The position numbers and the translations under genes were made by a program. The notes beneath the pieces are model-generated. The model was given only the letters and a program-made list of their open reading frames with translations, did no database searches and was not told where the DNA came from. Of a stretch of DNA of 64,000 bases, positions 32,701 through 50,142 are shown one piece after another. The stretch covers positions 10,507 to 74,506 of the forward strand of contig CAMYYV010000001.1 in NCBI GenBank assembly GCA_947303625.1. Direction: 5' to 3'. How positions within the stretch are numbered: the stretch's first letter is position 1; every line of letters starts with the position of its first letter. Origin of the DNA: an uncultured Bacteroidales bacterium. GTDB lineage: Bacteria; Bacteroidota; Bacteroidia; Bacteroidales; F082.

Positions 32701-34269
32701 AGGTATTACGGCAACAAACTGATGACGTTCCCATCGCCCGACGACCTGACCACGAAGGTCTCCTTCCAATATGTGGATGGCATTTACGACAAGGGTCGTA
32801 CGAGGCAGAACCGTGAAGAGGCCGTGGCCGTGGTCGAAGAGATCAGGCAGCGGCTGTCGGATCCGGTGAAGTCGCGTCAGAGCATCGGCGTGGTGACTTT
32901 CAACACCAACCAGCAGTCGTTGATCGAGGATCTGCTCAACAACCTTTTCCGTCAAGAGCCGAAACTGGAAAAGACAGCTTTGGAATGCGAGGAGCCTCTC
33001 TTCGTCAAGAATCTGGAGAATGTACAAGGCGACGAGCGTGACGTCATCCTCTTCTCGGTCGGTTATGGCGCTGACAAGATGGGCAGGGTGTCGATGAATT
33101 TCGGTCCTCTTAACCGCGATGGCGGTTGGCGCCGACTGAACGTCGCAGTCTCGCGTGCCCGTTATGAGATGAAGGTGTTTTCGACCCTTACCCCCGACCA
33201 AATCGACTTGAACCGCTCGTCGGCCCAAGGTGTGGCAGGGTTGAAGGCATTCTTGGAATATGCCCAGAACGGAAGGCTGTCGTTGGCCTACGAAACCGCC
33301 AACAGCAAACGCACCAACGACTATTTGGTGCTGTCGGTTGCGGAGGAGATTAGGATGAAAGGATATGAGGTAAGGACGAACATCGGCTCGTCGGGCTATC
33401 GTGTCGACATCGGTGTCGTTGACCCTCAAGATCGTGGTAAGTTTGTGTTGGGTATCCTTTGCGACGGCTACAACTATGCTACCGCCAAGTCGGCGCGCGA
33501 TAGGGAGATTACGAGAGGCATGGTGCTTAAGCTGTTAGGATGGCGTATCAGCCGCGTGTGGGCCATGGAGTGGTGGGAGAGCCACGATGGCGCGCTCCAG
33601 AAGCTGTTGAGCGATATCGAGAAAGCCATCGCCGGGAAATGGGATGAGGAGGCGGAAGAAGTCGTGCCGGAAGTGGAAGAAACCGAAGAAGAAGTGGTGG
33701 AGGAGATCGTCGACCCGAAGGCCGTGCCTTACGTGAAAGCCGAGCTGCAGGCTATGCCTCCTGTGACGCCCGACGAAGTCATCTCTGGAGGCTATGCCCA
33801 TACCATCCTGAAAATCTTTGATGACATCATCAGGGCCGAAGCACCGGTCAGCAAAAAGATGCTCCTCAGGAGGACCAATGCCACCTTGGGCATTACTAGG
33901 TCTGGACAACGGCTCGCGCCTTATTACGATGCCTTACTGAGAAGTCACGGTTATCCCAAGACCGTGTATGGCGACGACATCTTCTATTGGAACATCAATC
34001 AGGATCCACGACAGCTTGACGTCTATCGTCCCGAATCGGACCGTGAGGCTTTGGATATTGCCCCTGAGGAGGTGATGGTAGCCGCGTGTCAGGTGCTAGA
34101 CCAGCAGGGAGCCTTGCCTGTGCAAGACTTGTTGCGTCAGGTGGCCAAGCGATTCAGGTTCTCGCGTTTGGGCGACAATGTCGTTCTCTCCATGCGTCGC
34201 GGTCTTGAACTGGCGTGGAAGTCTGGCAAGGTGATTGTGGAAAACGAAAAAGTGAAGTTAGTGAGGTGA
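26761..34269 (+). CDS. Giant multidomain protein (Hhe-like): LamG (Laminin_G_3) - unassigned region - DUF4011 - SF1 (Upf1-like AAA_11/AAA_12) helicase - PD-(D/E)xK REase (MTES_1575/DUF559-like) - DUF3320
   Basis: 2502 aa. LamG: LVAYYPFDGDTNDYSGNGNHGT ... FKGVIDEVRIYNRAFSPSEVNSLY (about 27013-27660). DUF4011-like: WERRLLDLTLRNNLL ... NTLYLAIGLLRW (from about 28880). Walker A: LHGPPGTGKSQT (about 29806). Walker B: VIFDEASQM (about 32444). Also VVGDPKQLPPT, QGDERDVI and LNVAVSRAR. Nuclease: GYRVDIGV..LGILCDGYNYATAKSARDRE..GWRISRVW (about 33325-33590). Confidence 0.92.
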   Translation: MEFDDIFQSNAENKSQSAEDLWATGDSSKQGGSQTYDFQSQDFFDLLSKDSGPTETVTFGFDGLMDSPKKEMAIEDALQESHFVPTDGLVAYYPFDGDTNDYSGNGNHGTIIGDVEPAPGRHGNPNGAYRFPGEPFNYISIRDAEVLHLSSFTLSAWVFSDSEDYGSGPVDLPVLRPIINKGRDIVNGSYRLNVNGVGAQNLYGGSNDASVDHIPQLGQWHMVTGTVKGDQARLYIDGKLQAETILSFPFSYGNSDPLAIGMHYYPGVPPQWAYPFKGVIDEVRIYNRAFSPSEVNSLYHYDERGAGASIDHSAEESNDGLAEQEFGEYEVDFMDETKIKVVINHNPSVNFAMQQNRVPLLKEIRVRNVSNSLLSDLVVEVTADPEFATRWTCGITELSSLEEVSITDIPLAVSASYLAQLTEGVAGNLRVRIRMGKVGLYDQTVPVDLDAFDQWRGLSMEPKVLASFVQPKHPALPPILVKASEILKKWSGSPTFDEYQTRDPNRVKMQMASVFAALAELKVVNVSPAVDYTRSGDKLRFPDAIIDTRMASDLDMALLYASLLEAIGLHALIAFSEDAILVGSWLIPDCFADTAGDDVSLLSKRLSKGIEELAFVSVKCLFSGNAKPFDKAGDDAAAVLSNVDKFLMVIDICRARMSHIRPLPLRVMGSNGYEIVVEEDDMDAEKPMQVSAGNLVLDDGTTEVTKQTIWERRLLDLTLRNNLLSTRINKKTLQIVSVKVNEIEDALAANQEFKILECPEELEHPVGVEGIFQTPNNSDTVIDFLREELKQNRLHAYLKKDDLESALTHLYRQSRLSIEENGANTLYLAIGLLRWYETPISTKPRFAPILLLPIEMVRKSAARGYVIRGRGEETMLNITLLELLRQSFGITISGLDPLPTDHSGVDVVKVFNTFRNAIMEQTRWDVEEQAIIGTFSFNKFLMWNDIHNNVDVLRQNKIVNGLITGQVDWGDDLQGEMPDLDQTFSVGDLALPMPADSSQIEAISAALGGKSFVLHGPPGTGKSQTITNIIANGLYKGKKILFVAEKMAALQVVQKRLEAIGLAPFCLELHSNKAKKSAVIEQLKRTVETTKQKSSQQFQKEASQLNALRSEINDYVTALHRPYPIGRSLYDCFSDYSSVAEFTSAELLPFDSVGSLTEEDLLRYNAWLQEYVSICGILGDVANAPLRACKNPNYQPALKSELQDKLTALKEEAESCRANYEAYCHAVGWTFSDRLEWMASLQDFVRLHNDGTSLPAVLGSSDFDADADWARRLIVAGKAKDEARHVVCERLGQPFLNADVAQMRQEWQAIEAFIAGYPIAKTMSGKVSLSEAFTQVPQCYQQMMFQYSVVAGWLGMENETPTASRCEQMIRVFNSLLEMRLLIPDLFSEGNKRQCWADLSDMISHVEKRNQYRDQLLKRFRPTAFDLNYVELQNEWVEANSKSFISKKLGQNKVLKKVNVHALSEVTEEEMPDVLVLFRGYWDEVGCVYHYAEWAKKLMGYEWKEGSFDIALLKKTMDIHTTIHGQLLSMTQDERKTALAESTLVSCIGNDIQNFHAMKDVEIHRFIRMFEDFVEKYKDFNSHGVPSSTVLATIEEYQKAEAWLAEHQMQGSRLFGSLWNPESCQWSTLEHALLQTNLLRTCVANLEQNTERQNAVRMKLAAAYVNGGADNAVMQNTVPNYQEMVSALQAKAAECNRLLCGEMIVLDDDAFLSKLASSAGFVLQHLDELKDACKYNEVANSVPDKALQVLVDKVENGTIDGILIGLYYKKCFARTYAEHILSVDPLLSNFHGKMFEEKITYYKRLCQRFERLTREELYAKLASNMPNFQVEAAGNSEVGILQRNIRNGARGMSLRSLFDKIPDLLTRICPCMLMSPISVAQYIDARGAKFDYVIFDEASQMPTCEAVGTIARGKNVIVVGDPKQLPPTSFFEANAFDEDNADKEDLESILDDCLALSMPSKYLLWHYRSKHESLIAFSNMRYYGNKLMTFPSPDDLTTKVSFQYVDGIYDKGRTRQNREEAVAVVEEIRQRLSDPVKSRQSIGVVTFNTNQQSLIEDLLNNLFRQEPKLEKTALECEEPLFVKNLENVQGDERDVILFSVGYGADKMGRVSMNFGPLNRDGGWRRLNVAVSRARYEMKVFSTLTPDQIDLNRSSAQGVAGLKAFLEYAQNGRLSLAYETANSKRTNDYLVLSVAEEIRMKGYEVRTNIGSSGYRVDIGVVDPQDRGKFVLGILCDGYNYATAKSARDREITRGMVLKLLGWRISRVWAMEWWESHDGALQKLLSDIEKAIAGKWDEEAEEVVPEVEETEEEVVEEIVDPKAVPYVKAELQAMPPVTPDEVISGGYAHTILKIFDDIIRAEAPVSKKMLLRRTNATLGITRSGQRLAPYYDALLRSHGYPKTVYGDDIFYWNINQDPRQLDVYRPESDREALDIAPEEVMVAACQVLDQQGALPVQDLLRQVAKRFRFSRLGDNVVLSMRRGLELAWKSGKVIVENEKVKLVR

Positions 34270-34341: not shown

Positions 34342-35271
34342 ATGGGAATTTTTCAAAATATTTCAACAAAACTAGGCAATCTGTTGTCGGGCGAACCGGC
34401 AAAAGAGCCTAACGTAGAAGAAGTCTCCTCCATCGAAACCGACGAGGTAGCGTTGGAGTCCAAAGAGACTGCCGAAGAGGAGCGTGTAGCACCCGAAGAG
34501 GAGAATGAGACAAAGAAGAAACTTCCCAATTCGGTTGAAATCCGTAATAGGATCAAGAAGTCTACGTTGTCGATGTTGAATTCTCTGTATCTGGCCAATC
34601 CTGAGCTATGCAAAACGAAGCATCTGGTAGTTTGGCTTGACACGGATACGATCACGTTCAACTCGTATTCAGGTTTTGGACAAGAGTTGGAGAACTATTG
34701 GGTCGTTGAGAGCGGCTATTCGTTTGAGAAGGTGGACCTGAGGCAAGGGAAGCCCGAAAACGAAAAAGACGCCAGAATGATCGATGCGGGTGTTGAATCC
34801 ATTGCCATCTACTTGCAAGAGCATAAGGCAGGCCTTGGCAGAAGCGTTGTGAAGAGAGCACGTGTTTCCGTTATCGGAAGCAAGGGGAGTCTCGTTCAAG
34901 ACCCGTGTGAATTGTCAAGCGAGATGCTTGAAAAGGAAGGCGTGAAGTGTTTCAACATTGGGCGCGGAGCGTTTCCTAACGTAGGGGAGGGGGGCTATCG
35001 GCAGAACAATATCGCTATTGACGACAAGAACAATCTTGAAACGAACCGTTACGTCAGTCGCGCACATGCGCATATTGGGTTTTCCGAAACTATTGGCTTC
35101 TATTTGCAGGTGGAGTATGGCGGCAGCAGACTGTCGGGAAACCGTACAAGGATATTCCGCGGCGAGGAAAAGATAGAAGTGGAGAATGTGGAGGTGAAGG
35201 AACCCCTGCAGAATGGCGACTTGATAGAATTGGGCAAGGCGGTGGTGCTGCAATTTATTGAGATAGAATAA
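34342..35271 (+). CDS. FHA-domain protein with an FhaA-like layout (MGIF N-terminus, acidic linker, C-terminal FHA)
   Basis: 309 aa. FHA signature FNIGRG...NNIAIDD...VSRAHAHI...GNRTRIFRG...LQNGDLIELGKAVVLQF. Confidence 0.85.
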   Translation: MGIFQNISTKLGNLLSGEPAKEPNVEEVSSIETDEVALESKETAEEERVAPEEENETKKKLPNSVEIRNRIKKSTLSMLNSLYLANPELCKTKHLVVWLDTDTITFNSYSGFGQELENYWVVESGYSFEKVDLRQGKPENEKDARMIDAGVESIAIYLQEHKAGLGRSVVKRARVSVIGSKGSLVQDPCELSSEMLEKEGVKCFNIGRGAFPNVGEGGYRQNNIAIDDKNNLETNRYVSRAHAHIGFSETIGFYLQVEYGGSRLSGNRTRIFRGEEKIEVENVEVKEPLQNGDLIELGKAVVLQFIEIE

Positions 35272-35321
35272 TATAATAAGTAGATGAGCAATTGGGTTTA
35301 CATAATCGACGCGAGACGAAG

Positions 35322-35437
35322 GACTATGACTTGTGACTATGACAATGACCACTTCCGCCAAGAGCTGAAATTTCAGCATTCCCATGAAAGCGGTCATGGT
35401 CAATGGTCATAGTCGAAAAAGTCCCGTGTCCCGTGTC
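35322..35437. repeat. Structured, low-complexity intergenic element
   Basis: The arms GACTATGAC..GACTATGACAATGACCAC and GGTCATGGTCAATGGTCATAGTC form a long imperfect hairpin around the perfect palindrome GCTGAAATTTCAGC (35364-35377). A direct repeat GTCCCGT GTCCCGT follows at 35421-35437. Confidence 0.7.
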
Positions 35438-35453
35438 AAAAGAAAAAGCAGTT

Positions 35454-35461
35454 TAATTTTG
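35454..35461 (+). promoter_or_regulatory. -7 box TAATTTTG (internal promoter candidate)
   Basis: TAnnTTTG match 22 nt upstream of the 35484 ATG. Confidence 0.4.
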
Positions 35462-35483
35462 AATAGTTACTTACTAAAATATT

Positions 35484-36476
35484 ATGGGTATATTAAAAAA
35501 AGCATTGGAGAAACTGCGTCCGGATACTGATAAAGGCAGCGGAAAAACGGATAGTGGCCAAGGTAGAAGCAAGGTTACAAACAAGATTCTCTATAATGAA
35601 CTTATTGAGCACTTTAAGGTCGATATGGAGGAGTTGTCGGTGGGTCGAAGAATCCTTTACCCCATGTCCTTCAACATTCTTTTGCACCCCAGCGATTACG
35701 ATCGTGTTGGCGAGTCGCTCCCTTTTATTCTCCCAGAGGTGGTTGCGGGATTCTATGCCGCCATCAAGGCAAAAAAGGCGAGCATGCAAGAATCAGATGC
35801 GACGCCGCCGGCAACCTACTGGTTTTTCCAATTCGCATCTAGCAAAGTGAAGACGGAAGATGATCAGGAGTCATTCATCAAGCCTGGTGAAATCGTCACG
35901 GTGGGCCGTCTTGTCACTTTCGACATAAAGGCGCAGAAAGGGATGAGAACGGAGAATTTGGGACTGTCGATCAAATGCCAAAACTCCAATGTCAACCAGA
36001 ACAATATCAATCAGGAGGCCTTGCTGGGCATGGAAATTCTCACCAACAACGCCTTTATGTTTAACTTTGACAAGAATATGAGCGAGAAGTTGGGCGACAT
36101 CCAATCCTCGCAACGAGGCGGCAACAACGCTTTGGCCACCTTGACCTATTCTGATGGGACGACGAATGTCCACTTGAAGATGTTGGACGACCTGGTGATT
36201 CTTTCAGGTCCTCAGGAAACCCGAAACATGGAGAACATCATGATCATCAATAGCGAAGCCGTTGAGGTCGGGCATGTGCAAATCCGATATGTCAAAGAGG
36301 CCAACAAATTCCAGCTCTGCGCCTATTCCAAGACGCGGCTTAACATGCGTGAGGTGCCGCTGAGCGTAGGCGGCGTCCCGATATGGAAGGACATGTCGTT
36401 TAATTCTGACATCTTCCTTAACGATGAGGTGAATGTGAAGTTCAAGGCTTCAGACAGTATTATTTCAAGACTCTAG
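35484..36476 (+). CDS. FhaA-like protein: DUF3662-like N-terminal domain plus a degenerate FHA-like C-terminus
   Basis: 330 aa. MGILKKALEKL..., RRILYPMSFNILLHPSDYDRVGESL and IKPGEIVTV parallel the mycobacterial FhaA N-domain pattern. The C-terminus (IMIINSEAVEVGHVQIRY...LNMREV...IFLNDEVNVKF) has FHA-like spacing but lacks the canonical S-x-x-H. Confidence 0.7.
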   Translation: MGILKKALEKLRPDTDKGSGKTDSGQGRSKVTNKILYNELIEHFKVDMEELSVGRRILYPMSFNILLHPSDYDRVGESLPFILPEVVAGFYAAIKAKKASMQESDATPPATYWFFQFASSKVKTEDDQESFIKPGEIVTVGRLVTFDIKAQKGMRTENLGLSIKCQNSNVNQNNINQEALLGMEILTNNAFMFNFDKNMSEKLGDIQSSQRGGNNALATLTYSDGTTNVHLKMLDDLVILSGPQETRNMENIMIINSEAVEVGHVQIRYVKEANKFQLCAYSKTRLNMREVPLSVGGVPIWKDMSFNSDIFLNDEVNVKFKASDSIISRL

Positions 36477-36486
36477 GAGACAAACC

Positions 36487-37587
36487 ATGAAATACAAAAC
36501 CAAGATATCGATTGTCGGCAAGACCGACATGGGGCGCGTGAGGACCAACAATGAGGATGCCTTTGTTGCCCAAAAAATTTGGGACGAAAACACTTATCTT
36601 GCTGTTGCCATCGACGGCGTGGGAGGCTATGAAGGAGGAGAAATCGCCGCCGCCATGGCGCAGAAGACTATCCCGGATTATTTGTCGGCCTCATCGAACG
36701 GCGAGCGCGTCGAGCTGCTGAAACAGGCAGTCACTGCCGCCAACAACGCCATCTTTGAGGCAAGGGAGGCCGACCCCGAGCACGGCCAGATGAGTTGCGT
36801 GCTCACCGCCGCCATAGTAGATGTGGAACAACGGCAAATCAGCATGGCCCACGTGGGCGATTCGCGCCTTTACAGTTTCCATGACGGCAAACTGAAGAAG
36901 TTGTCCCACGACCATTCCTTGATTGGCTACCGGGAGGAAATTGGCGACCTGACGGAAGAAGAGGCCATGCACCATCCCCAGCGCAATGTGATTGGCAGGG
37001 ACGTCGGGTCGCAAAAGCATAAGGCCAGCGACGAGGACTTCATCGAGGCGCAGGTGTTCCCGTTGTTGCCGAACACCACGCTCCTGTTCTGCTCTGACGG
37101 CCTGACGGACCTAGTCACTTCGGCCGCAATTACGATGATTTTGAAACAAGAGGGGAACCTTGATGAGAAGGCTGATGCCTTGATCAAGGCAGCGCTCGAA
37201 GCGGGCGGAAAGGACAATGTCACGGTGGTGCTGCTTGAATACCAAAGCGACGAACCGGTAGTTGCTTCAGAAGAGACTGAAATAGAAACGGAAAATGCAA
37301 CGTCACAATCTGTGGTGGAGGAGAACGCCGGAGATGCTGGTAATCAACATGCTTCGAAAAGGGCCTGGCCTTTGGCCGTTGCTTGTCTAGTCCTTGGAGC
37401 GTTGGTGGGATCGCTTGTCGTCTTCTCAGGAATGAATAGTAAGATTAACAAACTCAAAGAGGCCCAAAAAGAAGAGGTGTGCCGTTATAAAGACAGTCTC
37501 ACTTTCCTGTGTGACTCGATAGAGAAGCTTAATAGTCAAATTCAAGATACAATCCCCACTAGTGATACCGTTTCGCTGAATGAATAG
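36487..37587 (+). CDS. PP2C Ser/Thr phosphatase with a C-terminal TM anchor (PstP/Stp-like)
   Basis: 366 aa. Motifs RTNNEDAF, IDGVGGYEGGE, HVGDSRLY, CSDGLTD and GGKDNVTVVLL. The TM segment is WPLAVACLVLGALVGSLVVFSG. Confidence 0.92.
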   Translation: MKYKTKISIVGKTDMGRVRTNNEDAFVAQKIWDENTYLAVAIDGVGGYEGGEIAAAMAQKTIPDYLSASSNGERVELLKQAVTAANNAIFEAREADPEHGQMSCVLTAAIVDVEQRQISMAHVGDSRLYSFHDGKLKKLSHDHSLIGYREEIGDLTEEEAMHHPQRNVIGRDVGSQKHKASDEDFIEAQVFPLLPNTTLLFCSDGLTDLVTSAAITMILKQEGNLDEKADALIKAALEAGGKDNVTVVLLEYQSDEPVVASEETEIETENATSQSVVEENAGDAGNQHASKRAWPLAVACLVLGALVGSLVVFSGMNSKINKLKEAQKEEVCRYKDSLTFLCDSIEKLNSQIQDTIPTSDTVSLNE

Positions 37588-40500
37588 ACGCTCGCCCATA
37601 AAAGAACTGCTGCCACCCATCATTGTCTCCGTGGTTTTGGTGGGTTTGTTCATCTCCCTCTTGCACAATGTTGACCGCCGAAATGCATCAGTGGTGGCCG
37701 ATATTGAAAACAAGAGGGCAGTTGTGCTTTCGCCCGGTTGCGACACTTCGCTGTTGTCGGAGATTATCTACAATGACGGTTATGCCGAGACGAAGGAAGA
37801 TGCCGATTTCATCGCGTCCGTTTTGGTCGAACGGCAGAAGAAGAAAGGCAGGTTGCCCAGTCTCTTCACCTTGCAGAAACGCGCCTTCGGACAGGTGAAG
37901 GCGGATACTGCTGCCGCTGAAGGAGTCCTTCCTTTGAAACTGAAGACGTCGTACGATAAGATTGGCCAGAACGATACGGTGTTCCCGTTTGAGGAACCGA
38001 TTCACGGTGGAATAGGAAAGATGACGGTTAAGGTGTATAAAAAGAAGCCGTCCGAGAAGTGGTGGAAAAGGATGATGAAGATGGAAGACAATGACCCATG
38101 CAAGGTCGACACGGTTCTTTTGACCACCTACTACCGTGATTCGTTGAATGCGCCTTGTCCGGCCGCTGTTGGGTTTCTTCCAACGGATTCATTGGGCGTT
38201 GCAGTTTTTTGTGGTTTGGATACCGCGGCCTCGTACAGCGTATTGCCTATAAAGCACGGTTGCGAGTATGGCTCGTCGAAAGGAACGGTGGGCGGAAAAT
38301 GGAAGATGCGCAAGTCGGGCGAGGGGATGGTTTTCTCCTTCGAGCAGAAGGAGCATCTGATTCCTCTATTTGGCAATGCCACGCTGAAGCAAATCAAGGC
38401 CGACAGGACCATCTTGGTGCGTTCGCCAAAAGAGTTCAAGGATGTGGCCGTGAAGTGGTTCGTGTATGTGATGCTTGCCTGGTGGGCACTTTGCTTATAC
38501 CTGATTGTCAGAAAAAAGAAGTTCAACGGTGCGTTGGTGGCATCCTGCATGTTTCTCTCGGTGTTGTGCGTGCTGATGATGTTCTCGATGCAAGATCCGC
38601 TGAATGATGAATTGAATGGAATCGTGATGGGAAAGGGCGTGGTGTTGGGTCTTGCGGTTTGCCTTGTGTTCCAAAGTGTTGACTTTGTGAAGTTTTATCA
38701 AAACAATAGCAAGTTGGGCTTCGACATCCCTTTGAACCTGTTCCGATGGCTGTTTTGTCCTTATCGCCAAAAAGTGGCCGGTTTGGCCAATACTTTGAAG
38801 GGCGATGCGAACGTGGCAAAGAAGATTTGGGCCATGATATTGGTACTACTTTCGTTGCCGTTCTTGCTCCTCGACTTGTTGCAAATCACCCGTTTGGGCA
38901 AAGCCGTTGACAGGCTTTGCGAAAAACTCCCCAAGGGAATAGGATGGCTCGTGTTGGCGTTGCTGCTGACCGCCATGCTATGGACGCCATTCGGTCAAGC
39001 CATCGGCGGCATGAAGGTGAACCTTAAGTTGGCCAGTCTTGTGTTCCAGCCCAGCGAGATTGCCAAGTACCTCATCCTCTTCTTCATGGCGGCGTTCTTC
39101 ACCCAACAGGCCGACACCATTATCGCCTATTCGCAACCACAACGGATGAACATGATGGGCAGCAAGTTGAAAACCTTGTTGTGGATTGTCCTGGGGTTGG
39201 CGGTCTTGATGGCCATGTATCTCGCCTTGGGCGATTTGGGACCGGGTCTTGTTATCGGAATAACCTTTATCTTGCTCTATTCCTTGATTAAATCCAAGGT
39301 GAATTTGGAACATCTGGATGAAGGGGGACGATGGAAGCGTATCTTTACGTGCGACTTTGCTATGCTCATTTATGGCGTGCTGACCTTCGCGGGATTCTTG
39401 CTGCTTGGTTATCAACTTGGAGGGAGACTGGTCATGTTGCTGTTTGGCGTATTGTGGTTTGTGTTTTGGGTGGCCCTAGGCTATTTCGGCTTTAGGAAAC
39501 AACTGTTCGAATCGGCCATGCTGTTCAATATGGTGGTCTTCGTGTTCGTTTGTGGTGGCGACCTCATGCAATTGATACCGGGCGTGAAGGACAGCAGCGC
39601 TGTTGAACGCTTTAACGACCGCGTGGAAATGTGCACCAATACCTGGGGCGACTTGGATATTGAGCACCTGGGCGAAAACGCCAAGGATGTGTCGAACAGC
39701 CAGGTGGCCAATGGACTTTGGGCCATGGCCACAGGCGGCATGACGGGGCAGGGACTAGGCGAAAGCAGACCTAGTCTGATACCGGCCTTCCATACCGACA
39801 TGATATTGTCTAGCATCGGCGAACAGATGGGATGGATAGGCCTGCTGATGGTGGTGGCGGCCTTGTTTGTATTGTTGCGAAAGATGGCCGTTGTTGGTTA
39901 TCGGGTAGGGCATCCCTTCGCTTTTTACCTGTGTTTGGGCTTTGCCATCGTTATCGGAGTCCAGTTCTTTATCATTGCGTTGGGCAGTTCGGGCATGATC
40001 CCTCTGACCGGCGTGACAGTTCCTTTCTTGAGTTTCGGTCGCGTGAGCATGATCCTCAACCTCGCCGCTTTTGGCGTTGTGCTTAGTCTCTGTAACAACA
40101 TCCGCGAGGAAGAGACGGCGGTTGAGGAGAATGTGCGGCAAAAGACGGTGGAGCAGTACAGCTATCCTGTGGCCATGGTCACTATGGTGTTCCTGGTTCT
40201 CGCTGTTTCCACTTTGCTCGTATGGCAGTATTATCAGTTGTGGAACCGTGACAGCACCTTGATACGCCCGGCCTACGTCATCAACAACCAGGGTGCTCCT
40301 GAGGTGGACTATAATCCGCGCATCAATTTGTTGATGAACAACATGTATGCTGGCAGGATATATGACCGAAAGAATAGGCTGTTGGCTACTGGTGACAAGA
40401 ATGAGATTGATACCGCCAGTTGCGTGCGTGCGGGACTGGACAAAGAAAAGCTGATGAGGCTGATGACGCGCCACCAGAGGCGTTACTATCCTTTTGGAGA

Positions 40501-42163
40501 ATACATGTTCTTTATGGTGGGCGACCAAAATGAAGGCATCATGTTTGCCTATGATGAATACCATCCTGCGGGTTACATGGCGGAGGCGCAGCATCTGTCG
40601 TATCTTCGCGACTTTAAGACCGCCATGTTGGATGAATCGGGGAAACCGGTGAAGGTTGAATTGAATACGGACAGGCTGAAAGAGAGTTCCTATCTTGCTC
40701 CTCGTTCTGCAAAGCTGACTTCCAAATTGAGAGACTATTCGGAATTGTTGGTCTATTTGAAGGATGGCATTGACGGGAAGAAAGTGGAGGAGCACAACAA
40801 AAAGGTGAAGGAGAGCAACTTCGACTTGCACCTCACGGTGGATGCTGCCTTGCAGGTGGAACTACAAAAGCAGATAGCGGACTTTATAGAGAAAGGAGAG
40901 TATAAAGGCAAGGCCTATAAGGACATGAATTTGCTCCGTGTCTCGGCAGTGGTGTTGGATGCCGAGAATGGCGACCTGCTGGCATCCGCCAACTATCCTT
41001 TGCCAGACTATGACCGTCTGCGCGAGGAAGAGGATATTGCCAGAAGGAGAGGGAGACCATACGCCGTCTATTCCGATAATCTGAAAGATACAAAATGGCC
41101 GACCTATACCGACAGGGATTTGGGGACCACCTATCAAACCCCGCCTGGTTCCACGGCAAAGGTGATGTCGGCGATGGGCGGTTTCAGGAAGTTGGGAATG
41201 GTTGCCCAAAACCAGACTTATAGGATTACGAATGCCAACGCCATTGAAAAAAACAAGAAAGGAGAGGTTATTGAACCTACAGGAGATGATGTTGCCATGG
41301 ATGTCGCCATAATTAAGTCTTCCAATTGCTATTTTGTCAACTTGGTCAATGAACAACAGTTGTTTGACAATCTTAAAGAGGTGTATTCTTCTGTTGGAAT
41401 CAACATTGGAGGCATCATGCCTTATTGTTATACAATCAAGGAAGACAAGGGATGGGAAGAGAAATACTATGCAAAGATTGACAAGAATAAGAAGAAAGCG
41501 TATGACAAGTATGAACTTTTCGACAAAGGAAAGTTGGTCGACCCGAAAGATAGGAAGGTGAAGCCCAAAGCGTCCACCAATATGAGCGTGCCAGAATGGA
41601 AATGGGCATGGGGACAAGGATACAGCGATGTAGAGACGGGTGAGAGTTTCGATTTCTTGGCCTCGCCGCTCAACATGGCCCGTGTGGCCGCTACGGTGGT
41701 TAACGGAGGTGAGATGCCCGTTACCCAATATGTCATGCAACGCAATGATTATGAACGGTCTTTGCGAAAGGAAAGGACGGTGCCGTTGATGAAGCCTGGA
41801 GAGGCGAGAATCTTGAAGGGATACATGCTCAAGGAATCGGCCAATCAGAAAGGGAGGAATGGCGTCAAACTTCCAGAATATGTTGGGGGCAAGACAGGCA
41901 CGCCGGAGCGAGGCAGGATAAGAAGCGCATACGAGAAGAACGACAAAATCCATTACACATACGACAAGCAAATCAATGATGGTTGGTACATGTTCTTCGT
42001 CGAAGGCGATGCCACGCATCATTCCATTGCTGTAGCGGTGCGCTTGGAAAGGTTGTGGGTTATTGATGCTAATGCCGGTGCTGGTTCGGGCGCGGCAGTG
42101 AGACTGACAGGAAGCAAGGTCTTGGATTGCTTGAGAAAATATGGCTATATTAGAAATGACTAA
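37580..42163 (+). CDS. Fusion protein: N-terminal extension (about 300 aa) + SEDS glycosyltransferase (FtsW/RodA/SpoVE) + class-B penicillin-binding transpeptidase
   Basis: 1527 aa. SEDS motifs: FQPSEIAKYLILFFMAAFF (about 39044), LGDLGPGLVI, HTDMILSSIGEQMGWIG and PLTGVTVPFLSFGRVS. PBP motifs: VVLDAENGDLLASANYP, SxxK in PPGSTAKV (about 41147), SxN in KSSNCYF and KTG in GGKTGTPE (about 41888). The start overlaps the PP2C stop by 8 nt (ATGAATAG). Confidence 0.92.
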   Translation: MNRRSPIKELLPPIIVSVVLVGLFISLLHNVDRRNASVVADIENKRAVVLSPGCDTSLLSEIIYNDGYAETKEDADFIASVLVERQKKKGRLPSLFTLQKRAFGQVKADTAAAEGVLPLKLKTSYDKIGQNDTVFPFEEPIHGGIGKMTVKVYKKKPSEKWWKRMMKMEDNDPCKVDTVLLTTYYRDSLNAPCPAAVGFLPTDSLGVAVFCGLDTAASYSVLPIKHGCEYGSSKGTVGGKWKMRKSGEGMVFSFEQKEHLIPLFGNATLKQIKADRTILVRSPKEFKDVAVKWFVYVMLAWWALCLYLIVRKKKFNGALVASCMFLSVLCVLMMFSMQDPLNDELNGIVMGKGVVLGLAVCLVFQSVDFVKFYQNNSKLGFDIPLNLFRWLFCPYRQKVAGLANTLKGDANVAKKIWAMILVLLSLPFLLLDLLQITRLGKAVDRLCEKLPKGIGWLVLALLLTAMLWTPFGQAIGGMKVNLKLASLVFQPSEIAKYLILFFMAAFFTQQADTIIAYSQPQRMNMMGSKLKTLLWIVLGLAVLMAMYLALGDLGPGLVIGITFILLYSLIKSKVNLEHLDEGGRWKRIFTCDFAMLIYGVLTFAGFLLLGYQLGGRLVMLLFGVLWFVFWVALGYFGFRKQLFESAMLFNMVVFVFVCGGDLMQLIPGVKDSSAVERFNDRVEMCTNTWGDLDIEHLGENAKDVSNSQVANGLWAMATGGMTGQGLGESRPSLIPAFHTDMILSSIGEQMGWIGLLMVVAALFVLLRKMAVVGYRVGHPFAFYLCLGFAIVIGVQFFIIALGSSGMIPLTGVTVPFLSFGRVSMILNLAAFGVVLSLCNNIREEETAVEENVRQKTVEQYSYPVAMVTMVFLVLAVSTLLVWQYYQLWNRDSTLIRPAYVINNQGAPEVDYNPRINLLMNNMYAGRIYDRKNRLLATGDKNEIDTASCVRAGLDKEKLMRLMTRHQRRYYPFGEYMFFMVGDQNEGIMFAYDEYHPAGYMAEAQHLSYLRDFKTAMLDESGKPVKVELNTDRLKESSYLAPRSAKLTSKLRDYSELLVYLKDGIDGKKVEEHNKKVKESNFDLHLTVDAALQVELQKQIADFIEKGEYKGKAYKDMNLLRVSAVVLDAENGDLLASANYPLPDYDRLREEEDIARRRGRPYAVYSDNLKDTKWPTYTDRDLGTTYQTPPGSTAKVMSAMGGFRKLGMVAQNQTYRITNANAIEKNKKGEVIEPTGDDVAMDVAIIKSSNCYFVNLVNEQQLFDNLKEVYSSVGINIGGIMPYCYTIKEDKGWEEKYYAKIDKNKKKAYDKYELFDKGKLVDPKDRKVKPKASTNMSVPEWKWAWGQGYSDVETGESFDFLASPLNMARVAATVVNGGEMPVTQYVMQRNDYERSLRKERTVPLMKPGEARILKGYMLKESANQKGRNGVKLPEYVGGKTGTPERGRIRSAYEKNDKIHYTYDKQINDGWYMFFVEGDATHHSIAVAVRLERLWVIDANAGAGSGAAVRLTGSKVLDCLRKYGYIRND

Positions 42164-42213
42164 AAAAAAGAAGGAAAATGTATAAGAATAGGGTCTGTTT
42201 GTTGAAGTTTTTG

Positions 42214-42221
42214 TACTTTTG
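42214..42221 (+). promoter_or_regulatory. -7 box TACTTTTG (candidate promoter for the kinase and downstream genes)
   Basis: TAnnTTTG match 61 nt upstream of the 42283 ATG. Confidence 0.35.
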
Positions 42222-42282
42222 GCATGGTTTTAAAGACAATTGCAATTGCGTTGAATAGTCTGGTGGGAGTAAATCTGAAATA

Positions 42283-43683
42283 ATGGATTTTTTAAAAGAA
42301 TATACGCTGTTAGGTGAACTGGGCAAAGGCGGTTTTGCCAAGGTCTATAAAGTCCGGCACAACACGCTGGACTACATCCGTGCTATTCGGGTGTTGAATG
42401 AGACTGTTACTGATGAAGGCAGCAAGACCTATCAGAATTTTCTGCGAGAGTGCAAAGTGTTGCTTCGCCTTGGCAATGGCAGCCATCGCAACATTGTTCA
42501 CATCTACCAGCCCCGTTTGTTGGATAACCACGCTTTGGTGGAGATGGATTTTGTGGACGGCAAAGACTTGTCGGGCTATTTGAATGATAACGGCAATTTC
42601 CTGCCTATAGACGAGGTGTTGCGTATGGTGGAGCAAATAAGCAGCGCCTTGGCATACTGCCACGAAGACATCTACAAGTTTTGCATGGACCGCGAAGTTG
42701 ACAATCTGAAAGACGACCCGGTGGACGGCAGTCGCGTGCTAATAGATGAAGATACCCGCCATAGGTTGATTGAGAAATACAAAGTTATCCATAACGACAT
42801 CCACTCGGGAAACATCATGCGGAGGGAGGACGGGAGTTTCGTGCTTTTGGATTTTGGGTTGGCCATTACAGGCAGCGATGATGTGTGCAAGACAAGTCGT
42901 CACGAAAACGGCGCAGTGGAGTATAAGGCGCCTGAGAAATGGGACAAAGATGCGGTGTTGACCGAACAGTGCGATGTGTATGGCTTGGGCGTTGTTATGT
43001 ACGAATACATGACAGGCCGTGTGCCTTTCCCATACGACAAGAATTTGTCGAAGACAGAGGCCGAATTCAAGTTGCTGAAAGCACACCTTGAGCAGACGCC
43101 GCCGTCTATTGGTGATATGCGCAGGGCCTACTACGAGGCGAAATACCCCGGTTTGGTTTATGAGAAAGACTATCCCGACTGGTTGGAGGCGGCTGTCATG
43201 CGGTGTCTGGAGAAAGACCCGTCCAAGCGATTCCGCAATGGCAAGGAACTGTATGAGTACATCGTGGCTCATCGCAGCGAGAACACGAAAACCCGCTTGG
43301 AGGAAGAGATAAAGAGATTGAAAGAATCGTGTGATGAGTTGGCCTCTGAGGTCCAGAGACTACAAGCGGAAAACGAGACGCTGGTCCAGCAATTGGATAG
43401 CGAGCAGGGACGGAAAGAATCCTACGATGAGTTGGTTTCTGAGGTGCAGAGACTAAAAACTGAGAATGAGACTTTGAACGCTCGTCTGAACGAGGAGCAG
43501 GGGCAGAAAAAAGAAGAGCAAGATGAAACACCCTTAGAAGTTCAAGAACCCAAAGATGAAAATGATGCGGTGATTGAACAACCAAAGCCTGAATACGTTC
43601 CGAAAGTCTGCAAGAGATGCGGGACGATAGCAATATCCATCGATGCCAAGCGTTGTAGGAAGTGCGGGAGAAAGCTGGAATAA
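42283..43683 (+). CDS. Hanks-type Ser/Thr kinase-like protein (atypical catalytic residues) with a coiled-coil repeat and a C-terminal zinc ribbon; no TM or PASTA
   Basis: 466 aa. Motifs LGKGGFAKVY, AIRVL (Arg where the beta3 Lys is expected), HNDIHSGN, DFG, KAPE and DVYGLGVVMYE. Two 31-aa coiled-coil repeats are present. The C-terminus is CKRCG..CRKCG. Confidence 0.85.
   Translation: MDFLKEYTLLGELGKGGFAKVYKVRHNTLDYIRAIRVLNETVTDEGSKTYQNFLRECKVLLRLGNGSHRNIVHIYQPRLLDNHALVEMDFVDGKDLSGYLNDNGNFLPIDEVLRMVEQISSALAYCHEDIYKFCMDREVDNLKDDPVDGSRVLIDEDTRHRLIEKYKVIHNDIHSGNIMRREDGSFVLLDFGLAITGSDDVCKTSRHENGAVEYKAPEKWDKDAVLTEQCDVYGLGVVMYEYMTGRVPFPYDKNLSKTEAEFKLLKAHLEQTPPSIGDMRRAYYEAKYPGLVYEKDYPDWLEAAVMRCLEKDPSKRFRNGKELYEYIVAHRSENTKTRLEEEIKRLKESCDELASEVQRLQAENETLVQQLDSEQGRKESYDELVSEVQRLKTENETLNARLNEEQGQKKEEQDETPLEVQEPKDENDAVIEQPKPEYVPKVCKRCGTIAISIDAKRCRKCGRKLE
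43330..43515 (+). repeat. In-frame 93-bp tandem duplication (2 copies) inside the kinase gene
   Basis: tgtgatgagttggcctctgaggtccagagactacaagcggaaaacgagacg... parallels tacgatgagttggtttctgaggtgcagagactaaaaactgagaatgagact.... The peptides are CDELASEVQRLQAENETLVQQLDSEQGRKES and YDELVSEVQRLKTENETLNARLNEEQGQKKE. Confidence 0.8.
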
Positions 43684-43704: not shown

Positions 43705-44898
43705 ATGAAATGTAAGCATTGCAAAACAATAATCTCTGACGACAGTGTTTTCTGCGAGCACTGCGGAAGAAGAGTAAAACGTAATAAATGGCCGTTCATT
43801 ATTGCTGCCCTTTTGCTTGTTGGCGGAGGCGTGCTGTTCTATTTGAACTACGTCAAAGGCAATGAAACGCCCGGGCCGTCCGTTACGGTTACTGTCAAGT
43901 CGAAAGACGAGAGCATGGGGACGGTGAAAGGAGGCGGTTCATTTAAGAGCGGTGCGGTTGTCCAGATAGAAGCTACGGCTAACAAGGGCTATAGGTTTGT
44001 GTGTTGGGACGATGGAAACAAAGAAGGTTTCAGAGAAGTGACGGCGGACCATAACCAAGAGTATCAGGCGATTTTTGAAGAAAAGAGGAAGGTTGCGATT
44101 TCTGTCAAGTCGAATGACGAGAGCATGGGAACGGTAATAGGAGGCGGGACTTATTATGACGACACGGTTGTCTCGATAATTCCTGTGGCCAACAAGGGTT
44201 GCCATTTTGTTGGTTGGGGCGATGGGAAGGTGGATAATCCTAGAGAAGTGAAAACAGACCAGGCCTTGGAGTTGGTGGCGTATTTTGAGGAGACGGGTTC
44301 GAATTCGAATGATACTGTTACCCTTGGCCCTCCAGACCCTTTGCCCCGCGAGGTTCCAAAGTATAAGATTTCTGTCGAGCCTTCAAATAATAATATGGGG
44401 ACAGTGGATGGTGGCGGTACTTATGATTCTGCAACTGTCGTTACAATAAATGCTGTGCCTAAAGAGGGGTGTAAGTTTGCTTCCTGGAATGATGGAAACA
44501 AAGATAAAACGCGTAAGGTCGTGGTTGACGGCAACCGTAAATACACGGCACAATTTGAAAAGATTGCACAGCGTGTTGATCCTCCTGGTAAACTAGAGGA
44601 AGAAGTGCCTGGGCGCCTGTATCAAACGAAAGAATATTGGTTTGGGTGGTATGTAGGCGGTATGAAGAATGGGATTCCTGAAGGTAGTGGAAAAATGTAT
44701 TACGATTGTCACGTTCAAATAGCCAAACACGATATAGTTTCTCATTATGCAGAAGAAGGGGATTATTTTATAGGGATATGGTGCAATGGTGATATTGAGG
44801 ATGGAGATTTGTATGATTCTAAAGGTGAGTTGAAATGTCACATTAGTCCAGGCGGGCGTACTAAACCATATGAATTGAACAATGAAAAGAAAAACTGA
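43705..44898 (+). CDS. Zinc-ribbon / single-TM protein with three divergent InlB B-repeat-like modules and a MORN-like C-terminus
   Basis: 397 aa. MKCKHCKTIISDDSVFCEHCGRRV is followed by the TM segment FIIAALLLVGGGVLFYL. Three repeats of the type ESMGTV.GGG.Y..GAVV.I.A.ANKGY.FV.W.DGN follow. The tail is YVGGMKNGIPEGSGKMYY...GDYFIGIWCNGDIEDGDLY. Confidence 0.8.
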   Translation: MKCKHCKTIISDDSVFCEHCGRRVKRNKWPFIIAALLLVGGGVLFYLNYVKGNETPGPSVTVTVKSKDESMGTVKGGGSFKSGAVVQIEATANKGYRFVCWDDGNKEGFREVTADHNQEYQAIFEEKRKVAISVKSNDESMGTVIGGGTYYDDTVVSIIPVANKGCHFVGWGDGKVDNPREVKTDQALELVAYFEETGSNSNDTVTLGPPDPLPREVPKYKISVEPSNNNMGTVDGGGTYDSATVVTINAVPKEGCKFASWNDGNKDKTRKVVVDGNRKYTAQFEKIAQRVDPPGKLEEEVPGRLYQTKEYWFGWYVGGMKNGIPEGSGKMYYDCHVQIAKHDIVSHYAEEGDYFIGIWCNGDIEDGDLYDSKGELKCHISPGGRTKPYELNNEKKN

Positions 44899-46045
44899 AT
44901 TGAATATACGTATTGCAAAACCTATGCTTTTTGTGCTGTTGATGATTGCAACATGCTTAAAGAGTGGTCATGCACAGTCATTGTTTTATTCGTCGAGGGT
45001 GGAAACATTGTATAAATTTGTCAATGATTTGCAAGCGTTGGACTCCATCGACAATAATGATACGTTGCTGCAATGTCATGGTTTGGTGGAGGACGAGGTG
45101 GTTCCGATTCGCATTTGTAAAGATGAGAATGGTATTGTGGATCACATCGGCTATTGTTTTATGTCCGACTCATTGCGCATTGTTAACAAGTCTGTAGTTC
45201 AATTCATTGAGCGCGAGTTGCTTGCGATTATTGTTACTACTGATGCGGAAACGGCGTTGAGATCAGATTTAGAGAATGGATTGGTAATCAAGTTTGATGG
45301 TAATCCAATAAGTCATTCTTTGTTGCAGGACAAAAAGAAATTGTGCTCGTTATTGAAAGAAAGTGACGGTGTTACTGTCAATCGGATGAACAATAACTAT
45401 GATATATTGATTCACTGCTTGAATGGTCAGATATTGTCGTTTCTGTTTCCCGCTGATTGCAGGTTGATTAGTGGGATGGATAAAATCGAACAAGAGATGC
45501 GACTTGGTTTTCAGTTGAAAAATCATATTGCAAATGAAACAGACAGTTCGCTCTTATCACCTAATGAATCCTTCTTGCAGTTTTTGAAGGATGGCGTATA
45601 TTATGAAAAAGGAGAAGATTTTTCAATTCCACAAATTAATAGTGACTTGTTTTATGTTAAGCGCGATTCTGTTTTTTGTTTAGTCTTGGATACATCAATG
45701 GTTGCTATGTCGTTTTCTAATGTAATGTTGGTCCCTTTGGAGATGCAATTCACATTTGATGTGAAACACCGGATGTATGGATCTGTTGAGCAAGAATACA
45801 CGATAAACAGTCGTGATTTCAACGATTATTTTTCACAAGGATACGATAGATTTTTTGGGATTGAGTCATTAGAATCTGAAAATCTTTCAGGAACATTGAT
45901 GCTATATAATCGAGATGAAGAGTTTGTCCATTTAGTCTATGTGACCACAACAAAGGAAGATTTATTCAATGGAGGTAGGATGTCATTGGAATTATATTCA
46001 TATATACCTCAGCACAATATTAAAACACTTTTTGGAAATGAATAA
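44882..46045 (+). CDS. Hypothetical secreted protein (387 aa)
   Basis: ORF with a signal-like N-terminus (MLFVLLMIATCLKSGHA). It overlaps the previous gene by 17 nt. No motif recognised. Confidence 0.7.
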   Translation: MKRKTELNIRIAKPMLFVLLMIATCLKSGHAQSLFYSSRVETLYKFVNDLQALDSIDNNDTLLQCHGLVEDEVVPIRICKDENGIVDHIGYCFMSDSLRIVNKSVVQFIERELLAIIVTTDAETALRSDLENGLVIKFDGNPISHSLLQDKKKLCSLLKESDGVTVNRMNNNYDILIHCLNGQILSFLFPADCRLISGMDKIEQEMRLGFQLKNHIANETDSSLLSPNESFLQFLKDGVYYEKGEDFSIPQINSDLFYVKRDSVFCLVLDTSMVAMSFSNVMLVPLEMQFTFDVKHRMYGSVEQEYTINSRDFNDYFSQGYDRFFGIESLESENLSGTLMLYNRDEEFVHLVYVTTTKEDLFNGGRMSLELYSYIPQHNIKTLFGNE

Positions 46046-46058
46046 AACTAATTGAAGA

Positions 46059-46736
46059 ATGAAGAAATTATTTTTAATAGTAGTAATATTGCAAAGCCTT
46101 TCTGGAATTGTTTTTTCACAGAATTATTTGACAGAGGAACAAGAGCGAGAAATAAAACTCTCCAATAAATATTATTGGGAGGAAGGCAATGATTATGACG
46201 CTGACCGAGCATATCAAAATGCCATAAATAGTTTGACGGATTTGATCATCATAGATCCCGCCTATCAGAACAGCAGTAGGGAAGAAGTTTTGAACAAAAT
46301 GGAGAATAATGCTCGTTATGGACGAATTAGTCAAAAGGGTATGGTGTGTGTGTTAGTATGGGTTGCGAAAGACAACTTGTATGAAACCGAGAACATTCAG
46401 CAATGTCCGCAAAAAGAACCAGATTCTTCAAAACAAGTTTCGATAGACAGTCCTGTATTGCTAGAGCTGAAAAACTGCAAAGATTGCAAAGAAGTAAACC
46501 AAGTGGTGAATTGTCATGGGTGGATTCGTGGGAGGATTAATAGTTCTGAGGGATTTATTCATCCTGAACTATGCATTGTGGCTGTATTTGATGCCAATGG
46601 TGCTTTAATCGCTTTGCTTGATCAAGAAAAACTCCGTTCGTCCCGGATGGATTTGATTTCAGGGCAATTGATAAGCAATCCTGAGACTAAATTTCAGAAA
46701 GAAGGAATGTATTTATGGTACTTACAACAGAAATAA
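46059..46736 (+). CDS. Hypothetical secreted protein (225 aa)
   Basis: Signal peptide MKKLFLIVVILQSLSGIVFSQ and a 13-nt gap to the previous gene. No motif recognised. Confidence 0.7.
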   Translation: MKKLFLIVVILQSLSGIVFSQNYLTEEQEREIKLSNKYYWEEGNDYDADRAYQNAINSLTDLIIIDPAYQNSSREEVLNKMENNARYGRISQKGMVCVLVWVAKDNLYETENIQQCPQKEPDSSKQVSIDSPVLLELKNCKDCKEVNQVVNCHGWIRGRINSSEGFIHPELCIVAVFDANGALIALLDQEKLRSSRMDLISGQLISNPETKFQKEGMYLWYLQQK

Positions 46737-46748
46737 ATAAAAAAAGAT

Positions 46749-47750: not shown

Positions 47751-47760
47751 AACCACAAAT

Positions 47761-49296: not shown

Positions 49297-49336
49297 TGAA
49301 AGTAGTACAATTGCAACTTTTCAAAACACAATTATC

Positions 49337-50128: not shown

Positions 50129-50142
50129 TATAACATCAAGTT

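Follow-up and report, generated by a model that had tools for sequence, protein, structure and literature searches.

We analyzed a 64,000-nucleotide stretch of an uncultured Bacteroidales bacterium (GCA_947303625.1, contig CAMYYV010000001.1, positions 10,507–74,506 of the forward strand; hereafter, the window), which is the part of this genome that was covered, and focused on a gene cassette at 34342–43683 on its plus strand. From first gene to last, the cassette encodes an FHA-domain protein (FHA1), a second protein with a predicted FHA fold (g2), a PP2C Ser/Thr phosphatase, a single-chain fusion of a SEDS glycosyltransferase with a class-B penicillin-binding protein (PBP), and an atypical Hanks-type Ser/Thr kinase (STK). 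An earlier prediction made from the sequence of this stretch (the original prediction) had described two FHA proteins, a PP2C, a SEDS polymerase, a PBP and a kinase; in the open reading frame (ORF) listing all six elements lie at the coordinates and on the strand it gave, and hidden Markov model searches back the SEDS and PBP assignments and that of the first FHA protein, with matches to PF01098, PF00905 and Pfam FHA all above cut-off. Phyletic mapping, proposed at the time as a check, was carried out by scanning 185,579 species genomes for the fusion; a relative is encoded in 473 of them, and the best 80 loci (designated by L numbers) were read.

The fusion (1527 aa; 37580–42163, +) carries both FTSW_RODA_SPOVE (120.3 bits) and Transpeptidase (63.4 bits) matches on one ORF, so that the SEDS and PBP parts indeed form a single polypeptide, as had been claimed. 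Its N-terminal segment (residues 10–290; 37607–38449, +) comprises an extra transmembrane (TM) helix, TM0, and a family-specific domain. In the AlphaFold2 model of residues 1–300 (predicted local distance difference test score, pLDDT, 88), this domain is built of a helical subdomain and a CnaB/transthyretin-like β-sandwich, and a second TM helix follows. Foldseek matched the β-sandwich weakly (E ~5e-3) to pilin CnaB, carboxypeptidase-regulatory and transthyretin domains. The parity of TM helices and the positive-inside Lys/Arg counts across 76 homologs point to a periplasmic location of the N-terminal domain.

Residues 291–863 (38450–40168, +) form a single SEDS glycosyltransferase domain (PF01098, 120.3 bits against a cut-off of 26.4). 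It has one extra N-terminal TM helix, and two more extra helices are found between canonical TM6 and extracellular loop 4 (ECL4) in all members of the fusion family aligned. Among the 76 homologs, Q490, S492, E493 and D740 are invariant, and P491 and K496 are present in 74 and 72, respectively; the QPSE..K motif and the ECL4 HTD motif with the catalytic Asp occur in one copy each, with 95–100% conservation across four orders. The best PDB sequence matches of the SEDS part, P. aeruginosa FtsW and the RodA proteins of E. coli and T. thermophilus, are weak (≤72 bits). By alignment, the first cytoplasmic SEDS loop contains a ~65-aa insertion with a hydrophobic helix (residues 380–445; 38717–38914, +), which, among the displayed sequences, is shared by the window and the closest relative shown, L004, and by no other.

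Residues 864–1527 (40169–42163, +) contain the TM anchor of the PBP, ~240 unrecognised residues at the place expected for the pedestal, and the class-B transpeptidase (PF00905, 63.4 bits against a cut-off of 22.1). The transpeptidase motifs S1191-x-x-K1194, S1247-x-N1249 and K1438-T-G1440 are kept in 75–76 of the 76 homologs. The closest solved PBPs are MrdA (35 bits) and M. tuberculosis PbpA (24 bits), and the TIGR03423 model aligns from profile position 212 with 59.6 bits against a cut-off of 455.

The phosphatase gene (36487–37587, +) encodes 366 residues, with a catalytic domain at residues 1–255 and a single C-terminal TM helix at 296–314. The protein matches PP2C_2 at 57.7 bits and the Stp1/IreP model NF033484 at 206.9 bits (cut-off 230). 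Within its family, 57 of 64 members have a predicted TM helix, and the metal-binding Asp motifs are kept in 61–62 of 62. With the catalytic residues intact in each, the SEDS, transpeptidase and PP2C enzymes all look active. Direct reading of the sequence shows that the PP2C stop and the fusion start overlap by 8 nt (ATGAATAG; 37580–37587, +), exactly as originally described. The two genes abut or overlap in many further loci (for example, L015, L021, L043 and L068), and the overlap suggests translational coupling. A promoter and terminator scan, which is ill-suited to Bacteroidota promoters, found nothing above shuffled background, and Rfam returned two tRNAs only, both distant from the cassette.

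FHA1 (309 aa; 34342–35271, +) is composed of an N-terminal domain of unknown fold and a canonical FHA domain at residues ~180–309; no TM helix is predicted. Its Pfam FHA match, at 20.9 bits, narrowly exceeds the cut-off of 20.7. The phosphothreonine pocket (GR, SxxH, N) is largely retained in the family: among 69 members, the Arg is present in 62, the Ser and the His in 68 each, and the Asn in 53. In the family alignment, A3 and G207 are invariant, S239 and H242 occur in at least 68 of 69 sequences, and the pocket Arg is Arg208. Of the features that define an FHA domain, the fold and the Gly-Arg, Ser-x-x-His and Asn pocket, FHA1 has both and g2 has the fold only. FHA1 is thus predicted to be a phosphothreonine reader.

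The second FHA-fold protein, g2 (330 aa; 35484–36476, +), has no match in Pfam, NCBIfam or PADLOC. Because a search of PDB sequences with the g2 family profile gave nothing at E ≤ 10, its fold was taken from structure prediction. The AlphaFold2 model, for which 38 homologs served as input (mean pLDDT 72.5, >85 over residues 220–330), contains an N-terminal α/β domain (~30–140), a disordered linker and a divergent FHA-fold β-sandwich (~190–330). Foldseek returned 60 PDB matches of the β-sandwich at E ≤ 0.001, of which the top 50 are FHA domains throughout, the best being MDC1 (target TM-score 0.78, E 9e-6). The g2 and FHA1 families also align with each other over the same FHA region in hhalign (E 8e-5), and four of 25 g2 homologs reach Pfam FHA unaided. 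A HMMER profile run against 1.84 billion representatives delineated a compact g2 family of 257 clusters; the 150 matches listed are either proteins of ~320 aa or FHA1+g2 fusions. One such natural fusion, P0329 (594 aa), matches the FHA1 family at an hhalign probability of 98.8%, and P0386 (577 aa), as judged by eye only, resembles another. The existence of a natural fusion argues that FHA1 and g2 work together, and the two probably act as a pair.

The last gene (42283–43683, +) encodes the 466-aa kinase (Pkinase, 129 bits), which consists of a kinase domain, a coiled coil and a C-terminal zinc ribbon, with no TM helix and no PASTA domain. Arg takes the place of its β3 Lys, and its catalytic-loop sequence is HNDIHSGN, which preserves the catalytic Asp and the Asn; DFG is intact as well. 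The window kinase thus departs from the canonical Hanks pattern (β3 Lys, HRD with the catalytic-loop Lys/Asn, DFG), whereas the kinases of other clades are canonical. Among 102 cassette kinases classified by the β3 residue and the catalytic loop, all of which keep DFG, 38 are K/HGD..K, 35 are K/HRD..K, 16 are R/HND..H (the class of the window kinase), 10 are K/HND..H, and three fall into other classes (R/HND..K, K/HGN..K, K/HLD..K). A single TM segment, followed by an ectodomain, is typical of these enzymes (86 of 104 cassette kinases), with two to four segments predicted in eight and none in 10. Hence, the original account of a kinase with no TM helix, no PASTA domain and unusual catalytic residues is accurate for the window, but the TM-less state is peculiar to the window lineage and not a general trait. 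PASTA domains were likewise found in none of 10 scanned cassette kinases of other clades; three of the 10 have other recognisable C-terminal domains, namely, an FGE-sulfatase-like domain, a TPM domain, and a TIR domain with a double zinc ribbon. In the last of these (L016, 16425–18722; Bacteroidales), the cytoplasmic TIR domain and double zinc ribbon are located between the kinase domain and the TM helix, and this TIR kinase is the sole conflict-system-like feature seen within a cassette.

A gene following the kinase (43705–44898, +) encodes a probable kinase partner that, according to Pfam, has three InlB-B-repeat (Flg_new_2) ectodomains preceded by a zinc ribbon and a TM helix. Kinases that terminate in a zinc ribbon were found only in the window, L001 and L009, and proteins with an N-terminal zinc ribbon and a TM helix are present in all three of these and in none of the 78 other loci (one in the window, five in L001 at 3229–9965 and 17563–18096, and one in L009 at 15391–15963). 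The pair formed by the kinase and a zinc ribbon-Flg_new_2 protein recurs in L081 (16108–17298) and L083 (22511–24497). We infer that the zinc-ribbon kinase and the zinc ribbon-TM-InlB-repeat protein would constitute a split receptor kinase with a detached sensor, and that the gene for the latter belongs to the cassette.

The fusion has more than 120 full-length homologs with 45–100% identity. The best 80 carriers belong to Bacteroidota, except for one 6-kb contig binned as Dadabacteria, and include Bacteroidales (rumen and gut metagenome-assembled genomes, Muribaculaceae, Paludibacteraceae, Prevotellaceae), Cytophagales (Spirosoma, Fibrella, Rudanella, Larkinella, Fibrisoma), Chitinophagales (Ginsengibacter, Segetibacter, Flavisolibacter, Ferruginibacter) and Sphingobacteriales (Pedobacter, Mucilaginibacter). 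Searches with the window proteins using phmmer identified FHA1, g2, PP2C and one to three kinases beside the fusion in nearly every locus. In an all-against-all clustering of 1117 ORFs from 81 sources (the 80 loci and the window), only five families recur around the fusion, in 81, 69, 69, 62 and 60 sources, respectively, and the next family occurs in eight; such a five-gene grouping goes far beyond what chance would give. With a strict ORF filter, all five families are present in 39 of the 48 loci with at least 6 kb on each side, and phmmer adds a few more. The core cassette genes are always co-directional.

The host range bears on one possible function, a morphogenetic or differentiation synthase that makes a specialised wall for filaments, coils or resting cells, comparable to SpoVE–SpoVD. 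Many of the carriers are filamentous or coiled Cytophagales (Spirosoma, Fibrella, Fibrisoma, Larkinella), and the SpoVD/SpoVE analogy is drawn in a recent survey (PMC12516126). However, gut and rumen Bacteroidales of ordinary rod shape, Pedobacter and Mucilaginibacter also commonly carry the cassette, and no developmental genes are linked to it. We regard a morphogenetic role as unlikely.

The order of the five genes varies between lineages. With FHA1, g2, PP2C, the fusion and the kinase denoted A, B, P, F and K, the commonest orders are BPFAK (13 loci, in Chitinophagales and Sphingobacteriales) and BPKKFA (11 loci, in Cytophagales). The window order, ABPFK (FHA-FHA-PP2C-SEDS-PBP-STK), is found also in L081, L082 and L010. 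Three adjacencies are stable: B-P, P-F, where the genes often overlap, and F-A. Among the Bacteroidales relatives, ABPFK, KABPF and FKABP are mutual rotations; comparison of the window with L003, L004, L007, L008, L012, L033 and L083 gives the impression that F, K and a block made up of A-B-P had changed places.

Several lines of evidence indicate that the cassette is accessory. First, the scores of the SEDS part fall far short of the equivalog cut-offs of both TIGR02210 rodA (79.5 against 336.7 bits) and TIGR02614 ftsW (111.4 against 337.5 bits). Second, neither mreBCD nor division and cell wall (dcw) cluster genes were found within the 64-kb window. Third, the neighbourhood of the cassette is heterogeneous: the 135 nearest non-core neighbours in the 80 loci include MFS transporters, histidine kinases, glycosyltransferases, aconitase, NadA, a tRNA synthetase and SusD. 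Fourth, a complete cassette (L085) resides on the 137-kb plasmid NZ_CP089545.1 of Spirosoma oryzicola RHs26 at 69767–80323, where RefSeq annotates FHA, PP2C, STK, STK, FtsW/RodA/SpoVE and FHA proteins. Among fusions that stand alone, one (L005) adjoins a MobA/VirD2 relaxase gene (8008–8937), and two others (L006, L013) are located between housekeeping genes. Finally, Pedobacter ginsengisoli has intact FtsI/FtsW and MrdA/RodA sets alongside a chimera of this kind, according to the survey mentioned above (PMC12516126).

These observations bear on the simplest alternative, that the cassette is the housekeeping elongasome (RodA–PBP2) or divisome (FtsW–FtsI), fused and placed beside its regulators as in Actinobacteria. 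The gene content equals that of the growth-linked actinobacterial cluster, and the catalytic residues are intact; moreover, the fusion shares both catalytic folds and their motifs with the canonical RodA–PBP2 and FtsW–FtsI pairs. In contrast to these pairs, it is a single chain, scores far below the equivalog models and lacks an mre or dcw context. Of 185,579 species genomes, just 473 encode a member of the fusion family. The contexts of the cassette are unrelated and include a plasmid and a relaxase neighbour, and P. ginsengisoli retains both canonical sets (PMC12516126). Because of the varied neighbours, the plasmid copy, the low equivalog scores, the lack of mre and dcw genes in the window and the P. 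ginsengisoli case, a housekeeping role is very unlikely, and we give it next to no credence. The original proposal that this set is additional to the canonical ones is, conversely, very probably correct, given the variable flanks, the plasmid copy, the low RodA and FtsW scores and the canonical sets of P. ginsengisoli (PMC12516126).

The closest formal parallel to the cassette is the fhaA-fhaB-pstP-rodA-pbpA-pknA-pknB cluster, which is a conserved feature across the Actinobacteria and in some Firmicutes and ties its seven gene types to wall synthesis (PMC6554272). In Actinomyces oris (L086), the order is DUF3662+FHA, FHA, PP2C, FtsW/RodA, PBP2, STK and PASTA-PknB. Like the actinobacterial cluster (Rv0020c–Rv0014c in M. 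tuberculosis), the cassette combines two FHA proteins, a membrane PP2C, with a PstP-like TM anchor, a SEDS protein, a class-B PBP and at least one Hanks kinase in a tightly packed, co-directional array, which in the window has the same order. Unlike in the actinobacterial cluster, the SEDS protein and the PBP are fused, and the fusion has a periplasmic domain and TM helices in addition; DUF3662, a TM-anchored FhaB and PASTA domains are missing; no PBPA_dimer or pedestal domain was detected; and the order is permuted in most members of a family that is accessory and sporadic, as opposed to universal and growth-linked. The agreement with the mycobacterial order noted in the original prediction therefore holds for the window, when compared with the A. 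oris cluster and with PMC6554272, but not for the family at large. Because the commonest orders differ from it, the mycobacterial order is a lineage feature and not a family feature. The cassette is more general than was apparent from the single window and less actinobacterial than was claimed.

Outside the FHA domain itself, the FhaA-like labels given to the two FHA proteins could not be sustained. DUF3662 (PF12401) matched none of the window proteins and none of 25 g2 homologs, and neither FHA protein has a TM helix. In hhalign comparisons with A. oris FhaA, where the single-sequence template limits sensitivity, g2 and FHA1 gave probabilities of 1.5% and 10%, respectively, over the FHA region only. 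No bridge to actinobacterial FhaA was found among the 150 listed HMMER matches of g2. FhaB/FipA is a small membrane-anchored FHA protein, whereas both FHA-fold proteins of the cassette have 309–330 residues and no predicted TM helix. Homology of the N-terminal domains of g2 and FHA1 to DUF3662 (FhaA_N) was considered and set aside, as neither Pfam nor hhalign detected it; no motif-level resemblance is claimed here. The PDB and hhalign scores of the SEDS and PBP parts do not discriminate in favour of actinobacterial RodA and PbpA, and thus support neither horizontal origin nor independent assembly. On paper, the Bacteroidota cassette would operate as the actinobacterial cluster does, but we do not count it among the members of that cluster.

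The original prediction knew of no description of such a module in Bacteroidota, which is no longer quite true. A 2025 Microlife survey briefly notes a 'rare' 1341-aa chimera of P. ginsengisoli with 'two GTase + TPase' domains (glycosyltransferase and transpeptidase, respectively), whose gene has Ser/Thr kinase and phosphatase genes on its flanks, and considers the phenomenon worth investigating (PMC12516126). The chimera is reported there for one organism, and the survey is silent on the FHA pair, on the grouping of five genes and where that grouping occurs, and on the N-terminal and extra domains (PMC12516126). From its description, the chimera almost certainly belongs to the same family: two Pedobacter loci (L071, L078) encode fusions of 1332–1357 aa flanked by PP2C and STK genes. 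The two accounts differ in that the survey reads two GTase domains, whereas our alignment indicates one SEDS domain with inserted TM helices. A reading as two tandem GTase domains, which derives from InterPro (PMC12516126), was rejected for the fusion family, because a single QPSE and a single HTD motif denote a single SEDS domain; the published reading probably reflects a Pfam match split by the inserted helices. The same survey describes a 931-aa TPase-PBPA_dimer-GTase fusion of Senegalimassilia faecalis (Coriobacteriales) flanked by kinases and phosphatases (PMC12516126). This protein, too, is a natural fusion of a SEDS protein and a class-B PBP in an STK/PP2C-linked cluster; unlike the Bacteroidota fusion, it is actinobacterial, ~600 aa shorter and equipped with a recognisable PBPA_dimer domain, and it lacks the N-terminal periplasmic domain and the extra TM helices.

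A functional parallel is offered by the threonine-phosphorylation pathway of the type VI secretion system, PpkA-PppA-Fha1, which is an STK-PP2C-FHA switch. In both cases, a single membrane machine has a kinase, a phosphatase and an FHA reader of its own, encoded alongside it. Here, in contrast, the machine is a peptidoglycan synthase, accompanied by a pair of FHA-fold proteins and, in many cases, by two or three kinases.

We consider it probable, on balance, that the cassette is a self-contained, signal-gated auxiliary peptidoglycan synthase of Bacteroidota. This reading starts from observed features, namely, the parts of the cassette, their conservation, the intact catalytic residues and the accessory status. 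The sequence of events, the phospho-targets, the trigger and the way in which regulation runs are modeled by analogy with PknB, PstP and FhaA. At the core of the system would be the single-chain synthase, in which the SEDS glycan polymerase is joined through a TM helix to the class-B transpeptidase. An envelope or external cue would activate the kinase, usually a single-pass receptor with a variable ectodomain; in the window, this role would fall to the soluble zinc-ribbon kinase, probably paired with the adjacent zinc ribbon-TM-InlB-repeat protein. The kinase would write phosphothreonine marks that FHA1 and g2 read, and the two readers would then dock on, or release, the synthase, turning on auxiliary glycan polymerisation and cross-linking. 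The membrane-anchored PP2C would erase the marks and switch the synthase off. Taken as a whole, the earlier interpretation keeps its parts, the gene order of the window, the fusion and the additional nature of the set, and loses the likeness to FhaA, the family-wide gene order and a general link to defence.

Some observations weigh against a signal-gated synthase. In three Bacteroidales loci (L005, L006, L013), regulators are absent up to a distance of 10 kb from the fusion; the synthase can thus occur with no switch close at hand. The pocket of g2 is degenerate in the window lineage, and across 59 homologs the Arg is present in 17 and the Ser in 29. With its β3 Arg and catalytic-loop His, the window kinase may be weakly active or a pseudokinase. 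No phospho-acceptor site was identified. Lastly, the pedestal domain of class-B PBPs activates SEDS proteins, and in the fusion neither PBP_dimer (PF03717) nor PBPA_dimer (PF21922) was matched in Pfam at E ≤ 0.01; ~240 aa separate the anchor from the transpeptidase.

A more specific version of the signal-gated synthase, and not a contradiction of it, is a back-up enzyme for antibiotic or envelope damage, which the kinase and PP2C would switch on once the usual PBPs are blocked or the wall suffers damage. The likeness here is to the IreK/IreP- or Stk1/Stp1-dependent β-lactam tolerance of Firmicutes, and the cassette PP2C is indeed closest to the Stp1/IreP model. The transpeptidase is very divergent from solved PBPs (35 bits at best), and the cassette is accessory and sometimes plasmid-borne. 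There is, however, no resistance-gene context, with no β-lactamase or regulator nearby, and no sequence sign of low β-lactam affinity. We regard a back-up role as fairly unlikely.

The surroundings of the cassette in the window raise a further alternative, that it is an anti-phage or other conflict system in which the kinase detects infection and triggers an envelope response, either abortive or protective. Just upstream lies a gene for a ProA/Hhe-type anti-phage helicase-nuclease of 2502 aa (26761–34269, +; ProA match, 2019 bits), with Laminin_G_3, DUF4011, SF1 helicase, MTES_1575 restriction endonuclease and DUF3320 domains. Both in the window and in L081, the locus of an 89% ortholog, ProA and a kinase-vWA-PP2C triad immediately precede the cassette; ProA is rarely a neighbour elsewhere. 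Other features in keeping with a conflict system are the matches of the kinase to the PADLOC models PD-T4-6 and mad6, the TIR domain of the L016 kinase, and the high variability of the sensor ectodomains. However, the PADLOC matches of the kinase are generic Hanks-domain matches, and the other four cassette proteins have none. Only about four of the 135 nearest neighbours in the 80 loci match PADLOC at E ≤ 1e-10, most neighbours being metabolic or housekeeping genes, and no relative of the fusion was found in viral contigs. The description of the cassette as part of an island beside defence genes is therefore apt for the window and L081 and does not extend to the family in general, and we view an anti-phage function as quite improbable.

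Returning to the signal-gated synthase, a broader claim can be put forward tentatively, with more doubt than conviction: that the cassette is a portable module that spreads horizontally in Bacteroidota on plasmids and mobilisable elements, has swappable sensors, and represents the first dedicated machine of a SEDS protein and a class-B PBP controlled by eukaryotic-type STKs, PP2C and FHA proteins in diderms. Were this so, peptidoglycan could be laid down or repaired on cue, including through detached zinc ribbon-TM sensors that plug into a soluble kinase; possible cues are wall-degrading effectors of neighbours, host lysozyme, antibiotics and phage. To our knowledge, phospho-regulated synthases of this type are known almost only from Actinobacteria and Firmicutes, where they are entangled with essential growth. 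A dispensable, self-contained Gram-negative version would provide a clean genetic and biochemical model in culturable hosts such as Spirosoma, Pedobacter and Mucilaginibacter, and a natural single-chain synthase is attractive for structural and enzymological work. If the system proved to be a back-up triggered by damage or antibiotics, it would bear on β-lactam tolerance and on competition among gut and rumen Bacteroidales. Two annotations also gain context: g2, currently a 'hypothetical protein', and the fusion, currently an 'FtsW/RodA/SpoVE family cell cycle protein'.

The flanks of the cassette contain further genes of note. Downstream of the cassette kinase, genes for signal-peptide proteins of unknown function are found in the window (44882–48567), L024 (6202–9006), L026 (16022–21041) and L081 (17322–22206); they are designated g387, g225, g333 and g277 (DUF5683), and in L024 and L026 (Muribaculaceae/Porphyromonadaceae) the first of them overlaps the kinase stop codon. 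In the window, they are followed at 48589–54578 (+) by four tandem paralogs of 235–267 aa with CarboxypepD_reg and Lcl_C domains and by a 945-aa Lcl_C/fn3 protein; the GC content around these tandem genes is 35–41%, compared with ~50% elsewhere. Upstream of ProA, the segment 20337–25213 (+) encodes an Endonuclease_NS protein, a second Hanks kinase (423 aa), a vWA protein, a PP2C_2 protein and a 255-aa unknown protein; by Pfam, the kinase-vWA-PP2C set looks TerY-P-type. A TPR protein is encoded at 25697–26566, just before ProA, and a TerB-domain protein at 12013–13386 (−). Farther upstream, a 1121-aa protein (7095–10460, +) has a type IX secretion system C-terminal sorting domain, which fits a Bacteroidota origin of the stretch, and just downstream of it lie genes for tRNA-Glu(CTC) and tRNA-Arg(ACG) at 10650–10827 (−).

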